Shown: one piece after another, positions 370 through 59,147 of the stretch | How positions within the stretch are numbered: position 1 is the stretch's first letter | Layout of the letters: each line of letters starts with the position of its first letter | Origin: Candidatus Dormiibacterota bacterium | Lineage (GTDB): Bacteria > Chloroflexota > Dormibacteria > Aeolococcales > Aeolococcaceae | DNA: 64,000 nucleotides | NCBI GenBank assembly: GCA_963709585.1 | Contig: CAVPXI010000005.1 | Coordinates: 96,001-160,000 of the forward strand | Direction of reading: 5' to 3' | The notes under the pieces: generated by a model | Seen by the model: only the letters and a program-made list of their open reading frames with translations | What the model was told of the DNA's origin: nothing | Databases searched by the model: none | Translations under genes and position numbers: made by a program

Positions 370-1696
370 TCAGCTGAGTCGCGACGGCCGCGGTGTCAGC
401 GCCGCTTCGAGGTCGGCCGCGAAGCGTACTGCGTCATCGGGTTCGAGTCGCGACGTGGTGACCCGGATGCCTCGCTGGCTGGCGATCCGGAACCGGTCCC
501 CGGCGAGCACGCCCCAGCCATGCTCCTGGAGGGCGGCAACAGTCGCGTCCTCGTGAGCCACCGGGACCCAGACGTTGAGGCCCGAGCGGCCGTGGGAACT
601 CGATGCCGCGGGCGCCGAGCGCTTCGCGAAGCGCGTCGCGGCGGCGCGTGTAGGTGGCAGCGACCTGCTGCGCACGATCCGCCTCACGGGGGTCGCTCCA
701 GATCCGAACGACCAGCCGTTGGAGGAGATGGGACACCCATCCGGCGGCAAGCAGGCGGCGACCTTCGACGCGCGCCACCGTGGTCGCGTCACCCGCCATG
801 ATGGCGAGACGCAGGTCCGGTCCCAGCGACTTCGAAACCGACCGGAGATGCGCCCAGCGAGCCCGCCCCGGCTCACACAGCGAGTGGCATGGACGTTCTG
901 TGATGTCGAAGGCGTGATCATCTTCGAGCACCAGCACCCCCGGATGGCGGGCGAGCACCGCACGGAGCTCGTCGGCTCGTTCGGCGTCGATCGCGGAACC
1001 GTAAGGGTTCTGAGCACGAGGTGTGAGAGCGCATGCGACGGCGCCGGCGCGCAGCGCCCGGGCGAGACCCTCGGCGGTCGGACCACGGTCATCGATCGCC
1101 ACCGGGAGCACGGTCAGACCGAGCGCGGACGCGAGATCGATCACTCCGGGGTAGCAGGGGTCCTCGACGGCGATCCGATCGCCGGGACGGAGGTGAGCGA
1201 GGAGCGCGAGTTGAATGCCATCGAGCGCACCCCCGACGACGGTCAGATGATCGCTCGGCACGCTGTCACGGTCGAGACGGGCCGACGCCAGGGCGAGCAG
1301 CTCGGAGTCGGAGCCCGCGGCCCCATACAGAACCGGCTCGTGGGGCAGCTCGACGAACGCGGACGCGAGATCGGGCAGAAGCGCCGGGTCCGGGTTGCCG
1401 GAGAGCAGGTCGACGACACCGGCAGGCACGATCGGCCGGCCGCGCGGCGACGGAGGGACACGCGGGGCAATGGTGGTGCCGAGCCGGCCGGCCCCGGCGA
1501 CGAGTCCACGACGGCGCAGCTCCCGGTACGCGGACGCGACGGTCGCGGTGCTGATCCCGCGATGGGAGGCGAGCGATCGGACGGTCGGCAGACGCGTCCC
1601 AGCGGTGAGCTCGCCGTCGCGGATGCCACGCTCGACGCTCTCCGCGATCTCAGACGCCCGTCGCCCGGTGATGTGATAACGTATCGGTACGTTCAT
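370..1696 (-). CDS. MocR/GabR-family regulator (GntR HTH plus PLP aminotransferase domain); one frameshift near 596-601, probably a sequencing error
   Basis: N-terminal LPTVRSLASHRGISTATVASAYRELRRRG; AQNPYG, EDDH and SVSKSLGPDLR motifs. The C-terminus (SGLNVWVP...GIRVTTS) continues in the 370..1092 frame. Confidence 0.9.
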
Positions 1697-1699
1697 CGT

Positions 1700-1715
1700 T
1701 TTGTATTATAACAAA
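1700..1715. promoter_or_regulatory. Inverted repeat TTTGT-N6-ACAAA, candidate MocR operator overlapping divergent leaderless promoters
   Basis: tttgtattataacaaa in the 18-bp AT-rich gap between the divergent start codons at 1696 and 1715. Confidence 0.55.
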
Positions 1716-5991: not shown

Positions 5992-7026
5992 TCATGACGC
6001 TCGGGTGACCAGGATGTCATCCAGCGAGAACTCCTCCGGTGGCGAGAGTTGATCGAAGTCGCAGGAGCGCGGAGCCTTGTCGGGTCGCCAGCGGAGGAAT
6101 CGCGAGGCGTGGCGGAAGCGGCCGCTCTGCAGGTGGTCGAACGACACCTCGCACACGAGCTCCGGGCTCACCGACGTCCACGCGCTGTCGGCGGAACGCT
6201 GCCAGCGGCTCGGACCTCCCGGGGTTCGCCCCTGACCAAAGCTGTCGCCGCCGACGAGCGGTTGGAGTTGCTCGAGAATCGCCCGTCGCTCGGCGGCGTC
6301 GAACGACGAAGTGTGTCCGACGTGATGGAGGGCGCCGTCGCCGTCGTACAGGCCGAGCAGCAACGAGCCGATGCCACGCCCGTCCTTGGCGAGCCGGTAC
6401 CCGCCGACCACGCAGTCGACGGTGCGCAGATGCTTGACCTTCACCCAGCGCCGCTCCCCCGGGCGGTACGTGCCGGCCGGGTCCTTCGCGACGACGCCGT
6501 CCAGCCCAGCCCCCTCGTAGCGCGTGAACCAGGTGGTCGCCTCATCCGGATCGGTGGTCTGCGGGGTGACGCCGACTGTTCGACTGCTCGCGATCGCCTG
6601 CATCAAAAGACCGCGCCGTTCCTCGAGCGGGCGCTCGCGCAGGTCGTCCACGTCGAACGCCAGCAGGTCGAAGAGGACCACCGACGCGGGCGTCTTCTCG
6701 GACAGCATCCGAACCCGGGACGCGGCGGGATGGATGCGCTGCTGGAGCGCGTCGAAGTCGAGTCCGTGCTCAGTTGCGATGACGATCTCGCCGTCGACGA
6801 TCGCGCGCTCGGGGAGGGCGACCTGGAGCGGTTGAATCAGCTCCGGGAAGTACCGTTCGAGTGCCAGCGCGTTCCGGCTCGCGATATGGACGCTGGGCCC
6901 GTCGCGAAACACGATGGCCCGGAATCCATCCCACTTCGGCTCGTAGAGCCACCCCCCCTCTCGGGGTATCTCTGGAGCGGCGCGGGCCAACATCGGCTCG
7001 AGCGGCGGGTCGAAGGGGAGCGACAC
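5992..7026 (-). CDS. ATP-dependent DNA ligase (LigC type)
   Basis: YEPKWDGFR adenylation motif, DGEIV, GLDGVVAK, WVKVKH, OB fold ending RWRPDK. Confidence 0.93.
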   Translation of the reverse strand: MSLPFDPPLEPMLARAAPEIPREGGWLYEPKWDGFRAIVFRDGPSVHIASRNALALERYFPELIQPLQVALPERAIVDGEIVIATEHGLDFDALQQRIHPAASRVRMLSEKTPASVVLFDLLAFDVDDLRERPLEERRGLLMQAIASSRTVGVTPQTTDPDEATTWFTRYEGAGLDGVVAKDPAGTYRPGERRWVKVKHLRTVDCVVGGYRLAKDGRGIGSLLLGLYDGDGALHHVGHTSSFDAAERRAILEQLQPLVGGDSFGQGRTPGGPSRWQRSADSAWTSVSPELVCEVSFDHLQSGRFRHASRFLRWRPDKAPRSCDFDQLSPPEEFSLDDILVTRAS

Positions 7027-11187: not shown

Positions 11188-13999
11188 ATGACCGCACTGC
11201 AGCAGCTCGGCGAACACGGCCAGTCGGTGTGGCTCGACTTCATCAGCCGCGAGCTGGTGACCACGGGTCAGCTGCAGCGCCGCGTCGCCGACGAGAACGT
11301 GACCGGGTTGACCAGCAACCCCACGATCTTCCAGAAGGCGATCGCGGAGGGCTCGCTCTACGACGATCAGATCCGCGAGCTGATCGAGTCCGGGATCGAT
11401 GATCCCAACGACGTCTTCATCGAGCTCGCGATCACCGACATCCAGCACGCCGCAGACATCCTCCGCCCGGTGCACGAACGCACCTCGGGCGCGGACGGAT
11501 ATGTCAGCCTCGAGGTGCCGCCGTCGCTGTCGCATGACACCGACGCGACCATCGCGACCGCGAGAACCCTTTGGGAGCGGGTCGGCCGCCCCAACCTGAT
11601 GATCAAGATCCCGGCCACCCTCGAGGGAATGCCGGCGATCCATCGGACCATCGCGGACGGCCGCAACGTGAACATCACGCTCATCTTCGCGATCGCAATG
11701 CACGATCGTGTGATCGAGCAGTACGTCTCGGCGCTCGAGAGTCGTCACCGGGAAGGGCAGTCGCTCGACGTGCATTCGGTGGCGTCGTTCTTCGTGAGCC
11801 GCGTCGATACGCTCGTGGACAAGCTGCTCGAGGAGAAGCTCGCCGCCGACCCGGGGAACGCGCTCGTCGAGGGCCTGTTCGGCAAGGCGGCGATCGCCAA
11901 TGCGGTGCTCGCCTACGAGCTCTTCGAACAGCGATTCGGTGACGATCGCTTCGCGCCGCTGCGCGCCGCGGGCGCGCATGTGCAGCGTCCGCTCTGGGCG
12001 AGCACGAGTGCCAAGAATCCCAACTACCGCGACGTCGTCTACGCAGAAGCGTTGATCGGGCCCGACACCGTGGACACGATGCCGCCCGCAACCATTGAGG
12101 CATTCCTGGACCATGGCGTCGTGGCCGGTGACACCGTGAAAGCCGACTACGCAGGCGCCCACCGCGTGATGGATCAGCTCGCCGAAGCCGGGATCGACAT
12201 GGATGCGGTGACCCAGAAACTGCTCGATGACGGCGTCAAGCAGTTCGCGAACTCGTACGACGAGTTGATCCGAGGCATCGCCGAAAAGATCGACGCCATG
12301 GGCTCCGGGTACGCACGCCGCCAGCACATCGACACCGGTGGGGCGGCGATCCCGCTCGATACTCCCGCCGCGAGCGGGATCGCCACGCGGATCTGGCACC
12401 GCGACCCCAACCTCTGGAAACCGGGGGACAGCGCTCACGCAACCGTGATCAACAACCGACTCGGCTGGCTCGACGTCGTCGGCGCCATGCGCGAACGGCT
12501 CCCCGCGCTCAAGGCGCTGGCCGGCGAGGTGCGTGACGCCGGGTGGCACGACTGCGTACTGCTCGGCATGGGCGGTTCGAGCCTCTGCCCCGAGGTGCTG
12601 CGCAGCTCCTTCGGCAGCACTGACGGACAGCCGACACTCCACGTTTTGGATACCACCGATCCACTCGCCATCGCCAGGGTGACCGGGGCCATCGACCCGG
12701 AAGCGACCGGGTACATCGTCTCCAGCAAATCGGGCACGACCCTGGAGACGCTCTCCCACCTTGCCCACTTCTGGGAGGTGACCACCGCCGTCACCGACAA
12801 CCCCGGCTCGCACTTCGTCGCCGTGACCGATCCGGGCACGCCGCTTGCGACCATCGCGCGCGACCGAGGATTCCTGCACCTCTTCAAGAATCCGCCGGAC
12901 ATCGGCGGCCGCTACTCCGCCTTGAGCATGTTCGGCCTCGTCCCGGCAGCGATCATCGGGATCGACTGTGAGCTGCTCCTCGAGCGCGCCACCATGATGC
13001 GCAGGAACTGCGCAGCCGGCGTGCCGGGTGACCTCAACTGCGGCCTGAGCCTCGGTACCGTGATGGGCGCGCTCCACGACCAGGGACGTGACAAGGTGAC
13101 CATCCTCGCGCCCAAAGAGATCGAGGCCTACTCGTTGTGGGCGGAACAGCTCATCGCCGAGAGCACCGGTAAGGAGGGCAAGGGCATCATCCCGATCGGC
13201 GACGAGCCGATCGGAGACCCGGACGTGTACGCCGGCGACCGCCTCTTCGTCGCCCTGCGCATCGGCGATGACGCGGGATTCGATCGCTCCGTTGAAGCGT
13301 TGAAGGGCGCCGGGCATCCGGTCATCTCCTTCGACCTCGCCGACAAGTACGACCTCGCCGCCGAGTTCTTCCGGTGGGAGTTCGCAACCGCGGTCGCGGG
13401 AGCGCACCTCGCCATCGATCCTTTCGACGAGCCGAATGTGCAGGAGTTGAAGGACAACACCAAAGCGGTCCTGCAGCAGTATCACGACTCCGGCGCGCTG
13501 CCGGACGAGGCCGCAGCCGTCACCGACGGCGCCCTACGCGTGTATGGCGATGTCTCCGGATCCAGCGCGTCAGGCGCACTGGCCGCCCACCTCGATACCG
13601 CCAATCCAGGCGATTACATCGCGCTGATGGCATACGTCACACCCGACGACGCCAGTGAGCGGGCGCTCCAGGGTCTGCGTGTGGCCATTCGCGACTTCGC
13701 GCCGTCTCGCGACCACGCTCGGCTTCGGCCCTCGCTTTCTGCACAGCACCGGTCAGCTGCACAAGGGTGGACCGAACACCGGGGTCTACATCCAGATCAC
13801 CGCCGACGACGGGACCGATGTGCCGATCCCCGGTCAGCCGTTCACATTCTCGATCCTCAAGCGAGCCCAGGCCGCCGGCGACCTGCAGTCGCTGCGGTCC
13901 CACGGCCGGCGCGTCATCCGCGTCCACATCGCCGGCGACCTTGGTGCGGGACTCGCCAGCCTCACCGACGCAGTCAGCGCAATCACGGCGGCGCGCTGA
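11188..13999 (+). CDS. Bifunctional transaldolase / phosphoglucose isomerase; frameshift near 13693-13698, probably a sequencing error
   Basis: GQSVWLD, TSNPTIF, LWASTSAK (Tal); GMGGSSL, SKSGTT, GGRYS (PGI). The C-terminus GPRFLHSTGQLHKGGP is in the 13655..13999 frame. Confidence 0.92.
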
Positions 14000-14031
14000 G
14001 CGCGGCCGTCACATCGAGGGAACTCACCACC

Positions 14032-14960
14032 ATGCAGATCGGCTTTGTCGGGCTTGGCAGGATGGGCGCCAACATGGTGCACCGGCTCCGTCGCGACGGT
14101 GACCACGCCGTTGTCGCTTTCGATCCCAATCCGGATGCGCGCGCAAGCGTCGAAGCCTTCGGGGCGACCACGACCGCGAGCATCGATGAGCTCATCGCCG
14201 CCCTCGACAAGCCTCGCGGCGTCTGGATCATGGTTCCATCGGGCAAGGTGACTGACGACACGGTGGCGGCGCTGCAGTCGCTGCTCGAGAAAGGCGACAC
14301 GATCATCGACGGCGGCAACAGCAACTATCACGACTTGATCGCGCGAGCGGCCAGGAGCGCCGAGCGCGGCATCAGCTTCATCGATGCCGGGACCAGCGGC
14401 GGCATCTGGGGCCTGCAGGTCGGATACTGCCTCATGGCCGGTGGCGAGCAGGCGACGATCGATCACTGGCGCCCGATCTTCACGACCCTGGCGCCGCCCG
14501 ACGGCTTCCTCCACGTTGGACCGCCCGGCTCCGGACATTTCGTGAAGATGGTGCACAACGGGATCGAGTACGGGATGCTCCAGGCGTACGCAGAGGGCTT
14601 CGCCATCCTCCAGGCGAAGCAGGACTTCGGCGAGCTCGACCTGCACGCCATAACGCACCTCTGGAACCAGGGGAGCGTGGTGCGCTCCTGGCTCCTCGAG
14701 CTCGCCGAGCGCGCATTCGAGCGGGATCCACAGCTGGACCAGTTGCGCGGCTGGGTCGACGACTCCGGCGAGGGACGCTGGACTCTCGAGGAAGCGATGC
14801 AGCTGTCGGTCCCGGCCCCCGTGCTCGCGCTGTCGCTGATCATGCGATATCAGTCGCGCCTGCCCGACGGTTTTGGCAACAAGGTGATCGCGGCGCTCCG
14901 CAACGAGTTCGGTGGGCATCCGGTGAAAGCCGAGACAGCGGCAGGGGCTGCAGCATCACA

Positions 14961-14964
<4 letters not shown>
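14032..14964 (+). CDS. gnd: 6-phosphogluconate dehydrogenase (decarboxylating, short type)
   Basis: MQIGFVGLGRMG, IDGGNS, GHFVKMVHNGIEYG, DSGEGRWT, RNEFGGH. Confidence 0.95.
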
Positions 14965-54947: not shown

Positions 54948-55866
54948 CGCTCGTCTCCGCGACCGTCTCCTGGGGCTCGCCACTCCAGATTCCCGCGCGG
55001 TAGAGCTTGCCCGGAAGGTCGCGGCGGAGATCGGACGCGAGCATCTCCGCCACCGCGCACATCGCGGCGAGGTCGATGCCGGTCACGGCTCCGAGTGCAT
55101 GCAGCGCCTGCAGCGCGTCCTCGGTGCAGACGTTGCCGGTCGAGCGCGGCGCGAAGGGGCAACCACCGACACCACCAACCGAACCGTCGAAACGGCGAAC
55201 CCCGGAGTCGAATGCGGCGATCACGTTGGCAACGCCGAGCCCGCGCGTGTCGTGCACGTGCAGCGACAGCCGGTCGATCGGCACGGACATGGCTGCGAGC
55301 GCGCACATCGCGGTGACATCGACAGGAGTTGCCACGCCGATCGTGTCGGCGACACCCACCTCCGCGGCACCGCGCGCAACCAGATCCGCGCACAACTCGA
55401 CGACCCGCGCCGGCGCGACCCTTCCCTCGAATGGACAGCCGAAACTCACCGAAACGGCGACGTCGACGATGCAGGCGCGCTCGCCGGCGAGCTCGACGAT
55501 GTGCGAGATCTCGTCGAGCGACTCGTTCACACTGCGATTGACGTTGCGCCGATTGAACGAGTTGGTCGCGGCGATGGTGACGAGCACATTTCGCACCCCG
55601 TGCGCGAGCGCAAGCTCGAGGCCGCGGAGGTTGGGGATAAGCACGCGCAGCCGCGCAAGCTCACCCTGCAGTCCGGCGATCACCGCGGGTGCATCCGCCA
55701 GTTGCGGGACCCAGCTCGGCGAAACGAACGACGTTGCCTCGACACGCGGCACACCTGCATCGAGCAGCCCGCGAACCAGCCGGATCTTCGCTTCGGTGCT
55801 CAGGGTGTCGGCGATGTTCTGGAGGCCGTCACGAGGAGCGACGTCGGTCCAGAGCACCTCGTTCAC
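54940..55866 (-). CDS. Hydroxymethylglutaryl-CoA lyase
   Basis: PRDGLQN, FGCPFEG, ADTIG, HVHDTRG, GGCPFAP, GNVCTED. Confidence 0.93.
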   Translation of the reverse strand: MNEVLWTDVAPRDGLQNIADTLSTEAKIRLVRGLLDAGVPRVEATSFVSPSWVPQLADAPAVIAGLQGELARLRVLIPNLRGLELALAHGVRNVLVTIAATNSFNRRNVNRSVNESLDEISHIVELAGERACIVDVAVSVSFGCPFEGRVAPARVVELCADLVARGAAEVGVADTIGVATPVDVTAMCALAAMSVPIDRLSLHVHDTRGLGVANVIAAFDSGVRRFDGSVGGVGGCPFAPRSTGNVCTEDALQALHALGAVTGIDLAAMCAVAEMLASDLRRDLPGKLYRAGIWSGEPQETVAETSVG

Positions 55867-55940
55867 GCGGTATGGCCTCCCAGGGATGAGCGCTGCCCCT
55901 TCACCGTAGCAAACCCGAGGGCTACACTCTCGCCAAGCCG

Positions 55941-56618
55941 ATGCCGCGGTTCCGCGTTCCCGACTACATCCGAACCACCTTCGCGGTCAGCGATTGGCGC
56001 GCTTTCCGCCTGTGCGGCATGGACGAGGTCGGTCGCGGCGCGTATGCCGGCCCGCTGGTTGCCGCCGCGGTGGTGCTGCCACAGCGCTTCCGTCACCCGT
56101 TGCTCCGCGACAGCAAGTTGCTGACCGCAAAGCAGCGCGAGCTGGTTGGAGCGGTGCTTCGGGAGCGGGCGGTGGCCTGGGCGGTCGCCGAGGTGAGCGT
56201 GGACGACATCAACGCGCGCGGTCTCGGGTGGGCGAACGTCGAGATCTTCCGGAGGCTGGTCGACGCCGTCGACGCCGACGGGTACTGCTGTGACGGCAAC
56301 CTGCGCATCCCGGTGTCGCGTCCGCTTCACTCACTGGTCGCCGGCGACCGCAAGGTGCCGGCGGTCTCGGCTGCGTCGATCATCGCCAAGGTCCATCGCG
56401 ACGCGCTGATGACCCGCATGCACGACGACGCGCCTCACTACAACTGGGCGAGCAACAAGGGGTATGGCGCCCCCGAGCACCGAGCGGCAATCCGAGAATA
56501 CGGTCCACACCCAGCGCACCGGCGCGTCTTCCTCGCGTCAGTCATGCAGACCGAGCTCGACCTGACGGGAGCCGTTGCTCAGTGCGCCGTCTCAGCCCCC
56601 GGAGTGGGAGCCGGCTGA
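55941..56618 (+). CDS. rnhB: Ribonuclease HII
   Basis: GMDEVGRG, RDSK, DG, AASIIAKVHRD, NKGY. Confidence 0.93.
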   Translation: MPRFRVPDYIRTTFAVSDWRAFRLCGMDEVGRGAYAGPLVAAAVVLPQRFRHPLLRDSKLLTAKQRELVGAVLRERAVAWAVAEVSVDDINARGLGWANVEIFRRLVDAVDADGYCCDGNLRIPVSRPLHSLVAGDRKVPAVSAASIIAKVHRDALMTRMHDDAPHYNWASNKGYGAPEHRAAIREYGPHPAHRRVFLASVMQTELDLTGAVAQCAVSAPGVGAG

Positions 56619-56625
56619 CCCTCGG

Positions 56626-56853
56626 TCAGTTGGCGCCGCAGCCGCAGCTGCCGCCGCAGCAACCGCCACCGCCGCTCACCCCGGGGGAATCGTCCGACCC
56701 GGAGCCGGCGTGGACCGCCACCCGGCTGATGAGCGGCATGCTGGCCCGGCTCTCGCAGCTCGGACAGACGGCGGCGACTTCACGATCGGCCATCGGGCGG
56801 AGCAGCTCGAACACGGCCGAGCAGTCGTTGCAGCGGTATTCGTACAGAGGCAT
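56626..56853 (-). CDS. FmdB family zinc-ribbon protein
   Basis: MPLYEYRCNDC..FE...CPSC...GGCCGGSCGC. Confidence 0.9.
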   Translation of the reverse strand: MPLYEYRCNDCSAVFELLRPMADREVAAVCPSCESRASMPLISRVAVHAGSGSDDSPGVSGGGGCCGGSCGCGAN

Positions 56854-56883
56854 TGGCACAAGCGTACGCACGATCACGACGAT

Positions 56884-56913
56884 TTGACAAGTCGAACATC
56901 CGTTCGGTACACT
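56884..56913 (+). promoter_or_regulatory. Sigma70 promoter with a LexA (Cheo-type SOS) box in the spacer
   Basis: TTGACA 56884-56889, CGAACATCCGTTCG 56893-56906, TACACT 56908-56913, ATG 6 nt further on. Confidence 0.85.
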
Positions 56914-56919
56914 CGACCC

Positions 56920-57234
56920 ATGCCCATCCGCACCATCGAGCTTCAACTCCCGCTCGACGCCGATGAGGCCGGATCGCTCGCTCGGCGTCGCGTCACCCAT
57001 CTCGCGACGGTCGACGGGCTCGATCCGGCCGCCTTCGTCAAGTTGATCCGATTCTTTCCGTCACTGCGGGCAATCTACGGCGCATCCGAGGCTGAGCTGG
57101 CCCGGCTCGTCGGGCCTGTGGCAGCCGCACGCATCAGATGGTTTCTCGACGCACCGCTGGACACGGCGCTTGCTCGCGAGGCCTCACCGATCAACCTTCG
57201 AGACATCGCGCCCCCGCTTTCCTCCGCCGCCTGA
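56920..57234 (+). CDS. Stand-alone tandem helix-hairpin-helix protein (UvrC/XPF C-terminal-like), 104 aa
   Basis: LATVDGLDP...KLIRFFPSLRAIYGASEAELARLVGPVAAARIRWFL; clear leaderless promoter. Confidence 0.75.
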   Translation: MPIRTIELQLPLDADEAGSLARRRVTHLATVDGLDPAAFVKLIRFFPSLRAIYGASEAELARLVGPVAAARIRWFLDAPLDTALAREASPINLRDIAPPLSSAA

Positions 57235-57356
57235 CCTGTCACCGGCCCTGCGTATACGGAGCGTTGAACAGTGCAGGCGACGTAGAATCAATCTTTTGGT
57301 GCCATATCAATCGCTTGGCGCCATACGTCGCAGGTGAGAACGGAGGTTGTTGCAGC

Positions 57357-57981
57357 ATGCGGAGTCGACGTTCGAGAGCCGCCCTGCTTGACCGCGGTCG
57401 CGCGGCAGATACGATCAGTGATCTTGCCGATCACGCGGTGACACTGGCGCGCGGTGCAGGGAGCGCGGCGCTTCCGACTGTGCAGCGCGGCGCGGAAGGA
57501 TTGAGCCAGGTCCTCCAGACGGCGGCCGGTACCCTGGCGGATACCGCCGGGCAGATCGCCTCAGACGAGAAGGTCGTCGCGGCGAGCAACGCCGCTCGTG
57601 AACGGATCGCAGACGTGTCAGGCAAGCTGAGCAGCGCCGTCCGCCCGAAGAAGAAGACACATCGCGTGCGCAATCTCCTGATCGGAGCGGCCGTGGTCGG
57701 CGGAGTGTTCGCGCTCATCCAGTCGCCGCTCCGCGCCAAGATCCAGGAGCGCCTCTTCGGCCCGCCGCCATCCGATGATGACGATCTTCCGCAGATCACC
57801 CTGCCCGACGATGATCCTCATGTCGAGATCACCGATCTGACCAAGGCATCGAAGTCCGAGGCCGACGCGGCAACCGACGTCGTCGGTACCCCGGTGGTCG
57901 CCGAGTTCGACGTCGCGCGCCGGACGAGGCCACGGTCACAACCACGACGAACCCACCGACAACCAGGAGACCAATGCCTGA
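57357..57981 (+). CDS. Hypothetical single-TM protein; frameshift near 57903-57908
   Basis: GGAGG RBS, Ala-rich helices, KKKTHR followed by a TM segment. Removing one base gives a stop that overlaps the next ATG. Confidence 0.6.
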
Positions 57982-58591
57982 CGACCGCCCCTATCAGGGT
58001 CGTCCATCTTCGGACCGTCCCTCGTTCTCCGGCCCCCGGCAGTTCTCGGGCCCTCGACCCAATTTCAACAACAACGATTCCCGCCCGCCCTACCGACCGG
58101 CGCCGCGGGTCGAGGTTCCAGCCGCGCCGATCGCCCACTCGCTGCGGCTTCGCGACGGTGAGCGCGAGATCGAAGTGAGTGGATCAGCGGCGTTCGTCCG
58201 CCAGGTCCTCGACGACCTTCCCGCGATGTGGACGCGCCTGCACGGCGAAGGGTCGACGCGGCCCGCTCGGATCGACCTCCCCGCACGCAGTGAGGCCCCC
58301 GCTCCTGCGCCGGCAGAGCATCGCAATCACGTGCCCGAGAGTGCGCCCGAGCCGGCGAGGACGGCGGTGTCCGCTGCCCCTTCAAACGGCAAGCACACGG
58401 CAACTCGCAGCACCCCGGATGACAAGGTGCTGGCGGTCCTCAAGGACTCGACGCGGCCCCTCGCCGTCGCCGCCATCCGGAAGCGTCTCGGTGGCAGCTT
58501 CACGCCCCAGCAGGTCCGCCGCATCCTCGAGCGGAACGCGCCGAAGGTGTCGGTCACGGACGAGCGGCCGGCCACCTACCGTCTGCGCTGA
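57974..58591 (+). CDS. Hypothetical protein with probable C-terminal winged-helix domain
   Basis: AGGAG RBS; REIEVSGSAAFV domain; DKVLAVLKDSTRPLAVAAIRKRLG...QQVRRILE...TYRL. Confidence 0.65.
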   Translation: MPDDRPYQGRPSSDRPSFSGPRQFSGPRPNFNNNDSRPPYRPAPRVEVPAAPIAHSLRLRDGEREIEVSGSAAFVRQVLDDLPAMWTRLHGEGSTRPARIDLPARSEAPAPAPAEHRNHVPESAPEPARTAVSAAPSNGKHTATRSTPDDKVLAVLKDSTRPLAVAAIRKRLGGSFTPQQVRRILERNAPKVSVTDERPATYRLR

Positions 58592-58679
58592 CGTCGCAGC
58601 GGCCTGAGCCGGTACGCTTCAGGCCCGGGCTCGAGGTTTCCTGCCGTGCTCATAATTGAGCGGGCAGGGAACTGAAATC

Positions 58680-59147
58680 ATGCGCTGTCCACTCCGCGTC
58701 CTCATGATCGTGCTGCTCGTCTGCATGACCGCCTGCGGATCGGCTGCGGCCGACGGAGGCCCGACCGGCTCGGGCAGCCCGGCGCCCACTCCATACCCCA
58801 CCCCGGTCGGCGGCCTCGGCCACCGTCCATCGACGCCGGTGAGGATCACCCTGCTCGCCCCCACAAATCGGGAGGTCGTCCGTGGCACCACGCTGGTCGT
58901 CAAGGTGTCGGTCACCGGCGGGGTGGTGACCACGGTGACCACCGGCGACATCACCCCCACCAAGGGTCACGTCCACCTCTACCTGAACAACCAGCTCATC
59001 CTCATGAGCTACACCCTGTCGCAGCCGATCACCGTCAAGCCCGGCCTCGAGTACTCGATGTACGCGGAGTTCGTCGCCCAGGACCACTTCCCGTTCGAAC
59101 CCCGGGATGTCACCCCGACGATCTTCTTCACCGTCGCGCCGGGCTGA
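58680..59147 (+). CDS. Lipoprotein with Ig-like domain and GHxH / DH motifs
   Basis: Lipobox MTAC; ITLLAP; KGHVHLYLNN; AEFVAQDHFPF. Confidence 0.75.
   Translation: MRCPLRVLMIVLLVCMTACGSAAADGGPTGSGSPAPTPYPTPVGGLGHRPSTPVRITLLAPTNREVVRGTTLVVKVSVTGGVVTTVTTGDITPTKGHVHLYLNNQLILMSYTLSQPITVKPGLEYSMYAEFVAQDHFPFEPRDVTPTIFFTVAPG

Follow-up and report, generated by a model that had tools for sequence, protein, structure and literature searches.

The HhH gene, its promoter and its operator

The window analysed here is the whole of a 64-kb stretch (64,000 nucleotides, nt) of contig CAVPXI010000005.1 from a bacterium of the phylum Dormibacterota. Our subject within it is a small gene, here called the HhH gene, which carries a LexA-type operator in its promoter and encodes a protein of 104 amino acids (aa) that is predicted to consist mainly of two helix-hairpin-helix (HhH) units, an (HhH)2 domain (Table 1). 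The first-pass annotation of this DNA had described a −35 hexamer TTGACA, a spacer of 18 nt containing the palindrome CGAAC-ATCC-GTTCG, a −10 hexamer TACACT and an ATG 6 nt further on, and all of these elements read as it described; its 104-aa product, which starts MPIRTIELQLPLD, is likewise borne out by translation of the open reading frame (ORF). The palindrome, CGAACATCCGTTCG, lies entirely within the spacer and shows the overlap with the core promoter that marks the operators of SOS regulons. A consensus scan gives this promoter 10 of 12 matches, and over 2.4 kb it found two promoter-like sites where shuffled sequences gave 0.2. No Shine-Dalgarno sequence precedes the ATG, and from this, together with the 6-nt spacing between −10 and ATG, we infer a leaderless transcript whose first base is that of the ATG or lies close beside it, and which needs no ribosome-binding site.

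Table 1. Features of the HhH gene and its upstream neighbours, in window coordinates (pLDDT, predicted local distance difference test)
Feature	Coordinates	Strand	Remarks
−35 hexamer TTGACA of the HhH-gene promoter	56884..56889	+	TTG conserved among 76 unique orthologous upstream sequences (information profile)
LexA-type operator CGAAC-ATCC-GTTCG	56893..56906	none	perfect palindrome within the 18-nt spacer 56890-56907
−10 hexamer TACACT	56908..56913	+	starts 1 nt past the operator
Leaderless (predicted) ORF of the small (HhH)2 protein, 104 aa	56920..57234, stop included	+	ATG 6 nt (CGACCC) past the −10
ELQLPL, codons 7-12, clamp-binding-like, Hda-type register	56938..56955	+	unstructured, pLDDT 53-67
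Predicted (HhH)2 core, residues 14-80, ending in invariant RIRWFLDAPL	56959..57159	+	AlphaFold2, Foldseek, PDB profile search, UvrC likeness
Ala-Ala, codons 103-104, candidate ssrA-like degron	57226..57231	+	pLDDT <50
FmdB-family zinc-ribbon gene, 75 aa, divergent neighbour	56626..56853	−	Pfam Zn_ribbon_8, E 2.7e-14; TIGR02605
rnhB	55941..56618		next to the FmdB gene

Taken by itself, the window gives the box no significance: there is one GAAC-N4-GTTC against 0.81 expected, and at least one copy arises in 57 of 100 shuffles. Ten sites come within one mismatch of the 14-mer CGAAC-N4-GTTCG against 4.67 expected, and no LexA-type box other than that of the HhH gene is present in the window. The significance of the box comes instead from its position and its conservation among relatives. 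Eighty loci were fetched from species-representative genomes (864 kb) and with the window make up 81 sources and 927,834 bases; the relatives are all metagenome-assembled genome (MAG) sequences, most of them titled Dormibacterota MAGs and the remainder bearing other labels. The first-pass annotation had made its reading depend on the box being kept in homologues, and it is: the exact 14-mer occurs in 75 of the 81 sources, every copy lies upstream of the orthologous HhH gene between its −35 and −10, and none lies anywhere else in the 927,834 bases, where composition alone would give about 0.9. When the count is confined to the 78 sources with a locatable N-terminal protein motif (discussed below), 74 carry the exact 14-mer at the same promoter position and the remaining four (L043, L053, L054, and L063) have the one-base variant CGCAC-N4-GTTCG. 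Two loci offer no readable upstream DNA, one being N-masked (L029) and the other cut at a contig end with loss of the 5′ half of the gene (L045).

Four elements alone stand out as conserved in the information profile built from these 76 sequences: the −35 TTG, the ten bases of the palindrome, the TAnnnT of the −10, and the ATG. Each of the ten carries about 2 bits and their flanks about 0, with drift in the three bases between −35 and box, the inner four bases of the box and the six bases before the ATG. TAnnnT stands 1 nt past the box in 75 of the 76, and 61 have a gap of 6 nt from −10 to ATG and a further 7 a gap of 7 nt, other counts being artefacts of a search pattern that catches an earlier [AG]TG. 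All of this holds across a set in which the identity of the HhH protein drops to 45% while the operator stays fixed, and we read the pattern as that of a promoter in which an operator is embedded, a clear phylogenetic footprint.

The operator, which the first-pass annotation had called LexA-type, equals in sequence the box of Actinobacteria and Firmicutes and behaves as a conserved operator in the core promoter of a leaderless gene; LexA-regulated genes of Streptomyces, Mycobacterium and Bacillus have the same palindrome over the core promoter, and the LexA of Chloroflexi (Dehalococcoides) reportedly uses the same box. Specifically, the ten conserved bases are those of the LexA boxes of Streptomyces and Mycobacterium tuberculosis, namely tCGAAC-N4-GNNCGa in S. 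venezuelae, established by chromatin immunoprecipitation (ChIP)-seq and surface plasmon resonance (PMC9380542), and the experimentally defined TCGAAC(N4)GTTCGA in M. tuberculosis (PMC3381160). It weighs against the assignment that neither the window nor the 80 loci contain lexA, recA or any further classical SOS gene, and the presence of a LexA is presumed.

Among the 864 kb of loci, only L027 is informative for further boxes of this type. It contains an inserted gene with DUF222 and HNH domains by Pfam (449-1715, minus strand); along that strand CGAACACTTGTTCT, TATAAT and 6 nt lead up to its ATG, so that a box with one mismatch to the 14-mer stands in the same leaderless layout, operator beside −10, as at the HhH gene; tblastn found no second DUF222 copy in the other 79 loci or the window. 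We take DUF222 (PF02720) to be the 13E12 family. In M. tuberculosis, LexA gives six ChIP peaks at genes of the 13E12 family (PMC3381160). The gene in L027 resembles a mobile-type gene under SOS control of the kind found in mycobacteria, and as a single case with one mismatch the site is supportive rather than decisive for LexA. Taking promoter, operator and footprint together, the HhH gene is very probably a LexA-repressed, leaderless SOS gene, with LexA as the presumed binder, and probably a new, uncharacterised member of the bacterial DNA-damage response.

The small HhH protein family

The 133 homologues that make up the family measure about 90-110 aa, more where a false upstream start has been called; 42 were aligned (A1), and motifs were counted over 203 unique sequences. 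The over-extended members (P0001, P0004, P0010, P0016, and others), at 165-175 aa, have an ORF called upstream across the promoter into the divergent FmdB gene, and in-frame translation of operator and −10 shows in them as '...VRYT...'. Pairwise differences at the first, second and third codon positions number 29,211, 21,332 and 57,690 (57 of the 78 genes, those of modal core length), and the codons of the motifs vary synonymously among relatives; given this third-position excess and synonymous variation, the ORF is under purifying selection and a real gene. The first-pass annotation had called the protein stand-alone, and an exhaustive search of 1.84 billion representatives agrees: it returned 26 proteins at E ≤ 1e-3, 14 of them at E ≤ 1e-10, with no fused form among the 26. 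In the ESM Atlas the family forms a cluster of its own beside generic stand-alone HhH clusters, and NCBIfam has no family for it. The gene is chromosomal, with no tblastn match in phage or plasmid collections, and appears to be restricted to the phylum Dormibacterota and conserved throughout it.

The tandem HhH fold proposed at first pass gains little from Pfam, where HHH_5 at 20.3 bits and HHH_2 at 14.2 bits both fall below the cut-off of 27, a point against it, although precomputed PF14520/PF12826 matches exist on some homologues; it is the structural evidence that supports it. The AlphaFold2 model has a mean pLDDT of 76, with block means of 85-93 for residues 21-70, and places helices at residues 14-29, 36-45, 49-54, 57-64, 66-77 and 82-88, the first five of which give the five-helix arrangement of two HhH units; residues 1-13 have no secondary structure and residues 101-104 fall below a pLDDT of 50. 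Foldseek against the PDB retrieves only (HhH)2 domains, from XPF (2bgw), the C-terminal half of UvrC (2nrv), ERCC1-XPF, FAAP24, Hef and DisA (E about 1e-2, probability 1.00, TM score 0.45-0.53 over the query), and a profile search of PDB sequences retrieves the HhH repeats of Topo V, FAAP24, Hef, LigA, UvrC and ERCC1. These results fit the families named at first pass as the usual carriers of such modules, UvrC, XPF/ERCC1 and DisA. Hence we regard the (HhH)2 fold as highly likely for the window protein. Pfam matches the HhH region only, in keeping with the reported lack of a nuclease or polymerase domain, and the label 'ERCC4-type nuclease' that the JGI attaches to many homologues is misleading, since no ERCC4 or nuclease domain is present.

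Closest in structure are the (HhH)2 domains of XPF/ERCC1, Hef and FANCM/FAAP24 (top matches 2bgw, 2mut, 2a1j, 9hjo, and 1x2i, TM score 0.48-0.53), but these are eukaryotic or archaeal and joined to nuclease or pseudo-nuclease domains. Closest in sequence are C-terminal fragments of UvrC and one ERCC4-HhH protein (P0137). The C-terminal (HhH)2 domain of UvrC (PDB 2nrt/2nrv; HHH_5/HHH_2) has the same fold, and the UvrC fragment P0142 shares the second hairpin 'GP.AA.R' and 39% identity over 67 aa. Unlike UvrC, the window protein stands alone, without a GIY-YIG or RNase H-like endonuclease domain, hairpin 1 of its family reads G-h-[D/E] where UvrC has G-h-G, and the family adds N- and C-terminal motifs together with the block R71-I-R-W-F-L-D-A-P-L80, invariant or nearly so among the aligned homologues. 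Because the outgroups are UvrC C-terminal fragments, at 39% identity, and no fused form exists in the search, the domain is most simply read as a free-standing derivative of the UvrC C-terminal domain. Several features speak against a DNA-binding role: in all 42 aligned sequences an acidic residue at position 35 replaces the second glycine of hairpin 1 (G33-h-D in 29, G33-h-E in 13), hairpin 2 is G65-P-V67 and not the Gly-hydrophobic-Gly that contacts DNA phosphates, and the isoelectric point (pI) is 5.6-6.9 in five of seven proteins sampled. Strong DNA binding is therefore not assured.

At the N-terminus, the pattern [E/D]-[L/M]-x-L-P-[L/F/I/M] is found in 191 of the 203 unique sequences; the 12 without it are truncated, N-masked, frameshifted, mis-started or changed by one substitution (EPQLPL, DSELPL). 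Among the 191, position 1 is E in 185, D in 5 and T in 1; position 2 is L in 180 and M in 11; position 3, Q9 in the window protein, is Q in 85, D in 38, E in 34, L in 30, S in 3 and K in 1; positions 4 and 5 are L and P throughout; and position 6 is L in 176, F in 12, I in 2 and M in 1. The motif has much that a clamp-binding peptide of the QL[SD]LF or QLxLxL kind has, namely an aliphatic position 2, Leu at position 4, Leu or Phe at position 6 and a disordered terminus. In its place near the N-terminus and its x-L-x-L-P-L pattern it resembles the hexapeptides of Hda and HdaA, whose N-terminal clamp motifs are QL[SP]LPL (QLSLPL) and QFKLPL (PMC3836487), but where these have the Gln that binds subsite II the family has Glu (185 of 191), and it has no AAA+ or polymerase domain. 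The register chosen in the first-pass annotation, QLxL starting at Q9 (QLPL), does not hold up, because Q9 is a variable position (Q in 85 of 191) and the conserved register starts two residues earlier; its fifth position, moreover, is D or G and not aromatic. The likeness to the QLPLWG of ImuB (PMC10421592), the first four residues of which equal the window's own Q9-L-P-L, is accordingly not family-wide.

The Glu at position 1 is the main difficulty for clamp binding. By alanine scans Gln is among the three most important positions of the clamp motif, putting Ala in the first position leaves binding strongly weakened or abolished, and the Bacillus subtilis clamp binds hexapeptides about tenfold more weakly than does that of Escherichia coli (bioRxiv 10.64898/2026.05.27.728225). 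Co-folding of residues 1-35 (A1) with a stand-in clamp, Swiss-Prot DPO3B_STRCO, run with no controls, gave a score of 0.22 and a mark of 0.32 and counts neither way. With Glu standing where the key Gln would be expected, binding of the HhH protein to the beta sliding clamp stays hypothetical, and we consider it doubtful.

At the other end, 191 of the 203 unique sequences terminate in Ala-Ala while the preceding 15 or so residues vary in sequence and length, so that the family shares with ssrA-like ClpXP degrons a near-invariant terminal Ala-Ala on a disordered, variable tail. The N-terminal cleavage fragment of LexA, which ends in VAA, is an example of such a degron. For ClpXP to recognise an ssrA-like tag the final Ala-Ala is critical, and in E. 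coli a Leu, Ala or Arg before it is favourable (PMC10862746); Dormibacterota may follow other rules. The same source also supplies the case against a degron, in that Ala-Ala alone is insufficient in E. coli and short polar residues before it, in tags such as SSSAA, make poor substrates there (PMC10862746); in the family it is chiefly S, R, H, T or K that comes before Ala-Ala (SAA in 57, RAA in 50, HAA in 23, TAA in 17, and KAA in 13 sequences), and the upstream residues are polar or basic where those of ssrA-like degrons are Leu-rich. The window contains no tmRNA from which the native tag could be read. We tentatively propose that the HhH protein may be turned over by ClpXP through this candidate C-terminal degron, at slightly less than an even chance.

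No literature on the HhH family was found in a search that left out the supplements of regulon papers and subscription journals. The S. venezuelae (PMC9380542) and M. tuberculosis (PMC3381160) regulon papers, in their accessible text without supplements, contain neither an HhH-protein homologue nor the word 'helix-hairpin', and a mention of HhH in PMC3765255 was set aside as it concerns SRAP and not this family. The type of regulation and the fold are known; the architecture of this small HhH family is undescribed.

Neighbouring genes and other observations in the window

As the first-pass annotation had it, the HhH gene stands back-to-back with an FmdB gene that adjoins rnhB, an arrangement that Pfam and TIGR02605 bear out. 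The FmdB gene also looks leaderless (56854-56890, minus strand), with TTGTCA (complement of 56885-56890), 18 nt, TACGCT (complement of 56861-56866), 7 nt and an ATG. A −10 of the type TA[CG][GC]CT lies 6-8 nt ahead of the FmdB start in most of 57 sources, and in the window and close clades the FmdB −35 overlaps that of the HhH gene on the opposite strand. The further suggestion that the operator might affect this divergent gene was rejected as a conserved feature: over the same 57 sources the distance from the FmdB start to the box ranges from 35 to 173 nt and the gene has its own −10, so the operator belongs to the HhH gene. In M. tuberculosis, Rv0991c (Ruc) is a redox-regulated chaperone (PMC7448276), which may or may not be kin to the FmdB protein of the window.

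Among the 80 loci, rnhB is present in 74, the FmdB gene in 65, and the two genes downstream of the HhH gene, here genes 2 and 3, in 71 and 77. The whole block from a carboxyltransferase gene to gene 3 is collinear across the phylum, for which reason the neighbourhood says little on function and synteny was rejected as functional evidence. An operon of the HhH gene with the downstream genes was likewise rejected as the principal reading, since the 122-nt gap past the HhH gene has conserved elements of its own, a TAGAAT at 57283-57288, which gives gene 2 its own promoter-like element, and a leader with GGAGG before gene 2. The consensus scan found no terminator-like site past the HhH gene, and there may be read-through from it into gene 2.

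Genes 2 and 3 (57235-58591; loci L001-L028) form a conserved pair without a Pfam or NCBIfam family, preceded by the conserved GTAGAATC element (57282-57289) and leader. Gene 2 encodes a membrane protein of about 200-240 aa and gene 3 one of about 180-230 aa that ends in a conserved ...RPATYRLR. A comparison of four close relatives shows the stop of gene 2 overlapping the start of gene 3 (ATGCCTGA). In the window, gene 2 (57357-58178) has an extra T at 57906 relative to L001, L015, L012 and L003. The insertion shifts the frame of the last 25 or so codons of what is otherwise a conserved single-pass membrane protein; its relatives end ...NQETNA, and the window ORF continues to 58178. The extra T reflects a genuine frameshift or else a fault in the assembly.

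Further afield, a 1258-aa ORF (11188-14964, plus strand) with transaldolase, phosphoglucose isomerase and 6-phosphogluconate dehydrogenase domains lies in a pentose-phosphate cluster with transketolase, glucose-6-phosphate dehydrogenase and ribulose-phosphate epimerase genes. Such a triple fusion would be unusual; the alternative is a series of missed stops. An ATP-dependent DNA ligase of 344 aa (DNA_ligase_A_M and A_C; 5992-7026, minus strand) lies about 50 kb from the HhH gene, and the scan of the window found no LexA-type box beside it. In 55500-59000, Rfam gave a sub-threshold chance match only. It should be noted that loci titled Saccharimonadales, Binatia, Acidiferrales, Actinomycetes, Angelobacter or Chloroflexia (L012, L052, L055, L058, L069, L072, and others) share the HhH gene and its synteny, and the same gene in the same synteny as in Dormibacterota loci suggests that these are mislabelled or mis-binned MAG contigs.

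A hypothetical mechanism, its rivals and its significance

Based on the conserved promoter and the three conserved parts of the protein, we propose that the HhH gene is a phylum-specific, LexA-controlled SOS gene of Dormibacterota acting through the clamp, DNA and ClpXP, an explanation to which, as a whole, we give a probability of roughly 0.45. In undamaged cells a LexA dimer, the presumed binder, would sit on CGAAC-N4-GTTCG and, as the box fills the spacer between a near-consensus −35 hexamer and the −10, would exclude RNA polymerase. After damage, RecA-stimulated cleavage of LexA would free a strong promoter. The N-terminal E-L-x-L-P-L of the resulting protein would dock it on the beta sliding clamp in the manner of the QL[SP]LPL of Hda, the (HhH)2 core would hold DNA junctions or another (HhH)2 protein, and the HhH protein would in this way mark or occupy clamps at damaged DNA. 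The C-terminal Ala-Ala would make it a ClpXP substrate, and hence it would disappear once LexA repression returns. Well supported in this scheme is that a LexA-type operator gates a strong, leaderless promoter and that the gene behind it, conserved throughout Dormibacterota, encodes a small (HhH)2 protein; the mechanism beyond it is what we infer. In its most specific form, in which a leaderless, LexA-gated, ClpXP-timed mini-protein derived from the (HhH)2 domain of UvrC plugs the clamp cleft with a Glu-variant Hda-type hexapeptide, the proposal is unlikely.

Parts of the same evidence can be read otherwise. The degenerate hairpins and near-neutral pI argue for a module that binds protein rather than DNA, the structural neighbours in XPF, ERCC1 and FAAP24 are dimerising (HhH)2 domains, the best outgroups are the UvrC fragments (39% over 67 aa) and P0137, and RIRWFLDAPL is an invariant surface without counterpart in UvrC. 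These features would suit a mimic or partner of the UvrC domain that, by SOS-induced pairing of (HhH)2 with (HhH)2 as in ERCC1-XPF or FANCM-FAAP24, binds the UvrC C-terminal domain or another HhH repair enzyme to modulate incision, or lends an (HhH)2 module to a nuclease without one. The N-terminal motif would then have to bind a target other than the clamp; the strict conservation of E-L-x-L-P-L is left unexplained and a candidate partner was not found, and we give this possibility only an outside chance. A slimmer one goes to a checkpoint protein or modulator of the SulA or DinI type, a small, short-lived SOS protein with HhH as its scaffold that inhibits one process (replication initiation or elongation, cell division, RecA filament dynamics) through one protein. 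A small gene with a strong promoter under LexA-type control and a conserved degron-like C-terminus is the usual make-up of SOS checkpoint genes, SulA being degraded by Lon and UmuD′ by ClpXP, and an acidic to neutral pI is in keeping with it. Yet Pfam, NCBIfam, the ESM Atlas and the PDB profile search show no similarity to known checkpoint proteins, the fold is that of a nucleic-acid-repair module, and the HhH protein has none of the membrane segment that characterises the YneA/ChiZ/SosA-type inhibitors of Gram-positive lineages.

The two remaining alternatives concern the operator itself. Were the palindrome that of a regulator other than LexA, the gene would fall outside the DNA-damage response, and such a regulator would agree with a box that in 928 kb occurs only at the HhH gene, with one near-copy in L027, and with the failure to see LexA, or boxes at lexA or recA, in the window or the 80 loci. 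We nevertheless hold it improbable, since the LexA box determined by experiment in neighbouring phyla has exactly the ten bases conserved here, the near-copy lies at a DUF222/HNH gene of the family that, if our equation of DUF222 with 13E12 is right, LexA binds in M. tuberculosis, and the gene product is a domain of DNA-repair type. That the palindrome arose by chance ahead of a spurious ORF would account for a single GAAC-N4-GTTC in 64 kb (0.81 expected) and for a Pfam match below cut-off, but is refuted, to a negligible residue of doubt, by 133 homologues and 80 syntenic loci, the excess of differences at third codon positions, a box kept in 75 of 81 sources and a confident core model.

The SOS regulons mapped in cultured phyla have each yielded lineage-specific effectors, among them checkpoint proteins and mutasome parts. 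Dormibacterota are uncultured bacteria of soil and permafrost, on which our search found no SOS or LexA literature, and the HhH gene offers a clean, phylum-wide pair of operator and promoter with which to define their LexA box. At about 100 aa and with three separable modules that can be tested, the family is open to study with peptides and recombinant proteins and without cultivation. If the N-terminal motif binds the clamp, it would be a natural Glu-for-Gln variant of a motif used in inhibitor design. In the most specific form of the proposal, the one with the clamp cleft plugged, stalled replisomes would have in the HhH protein a brake or hand-over factor induced by damage, a function that in E. 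coli falls to unrelated proteins such as UmuD2C, and the accepted definition of the clamp-binding motif would be widened.

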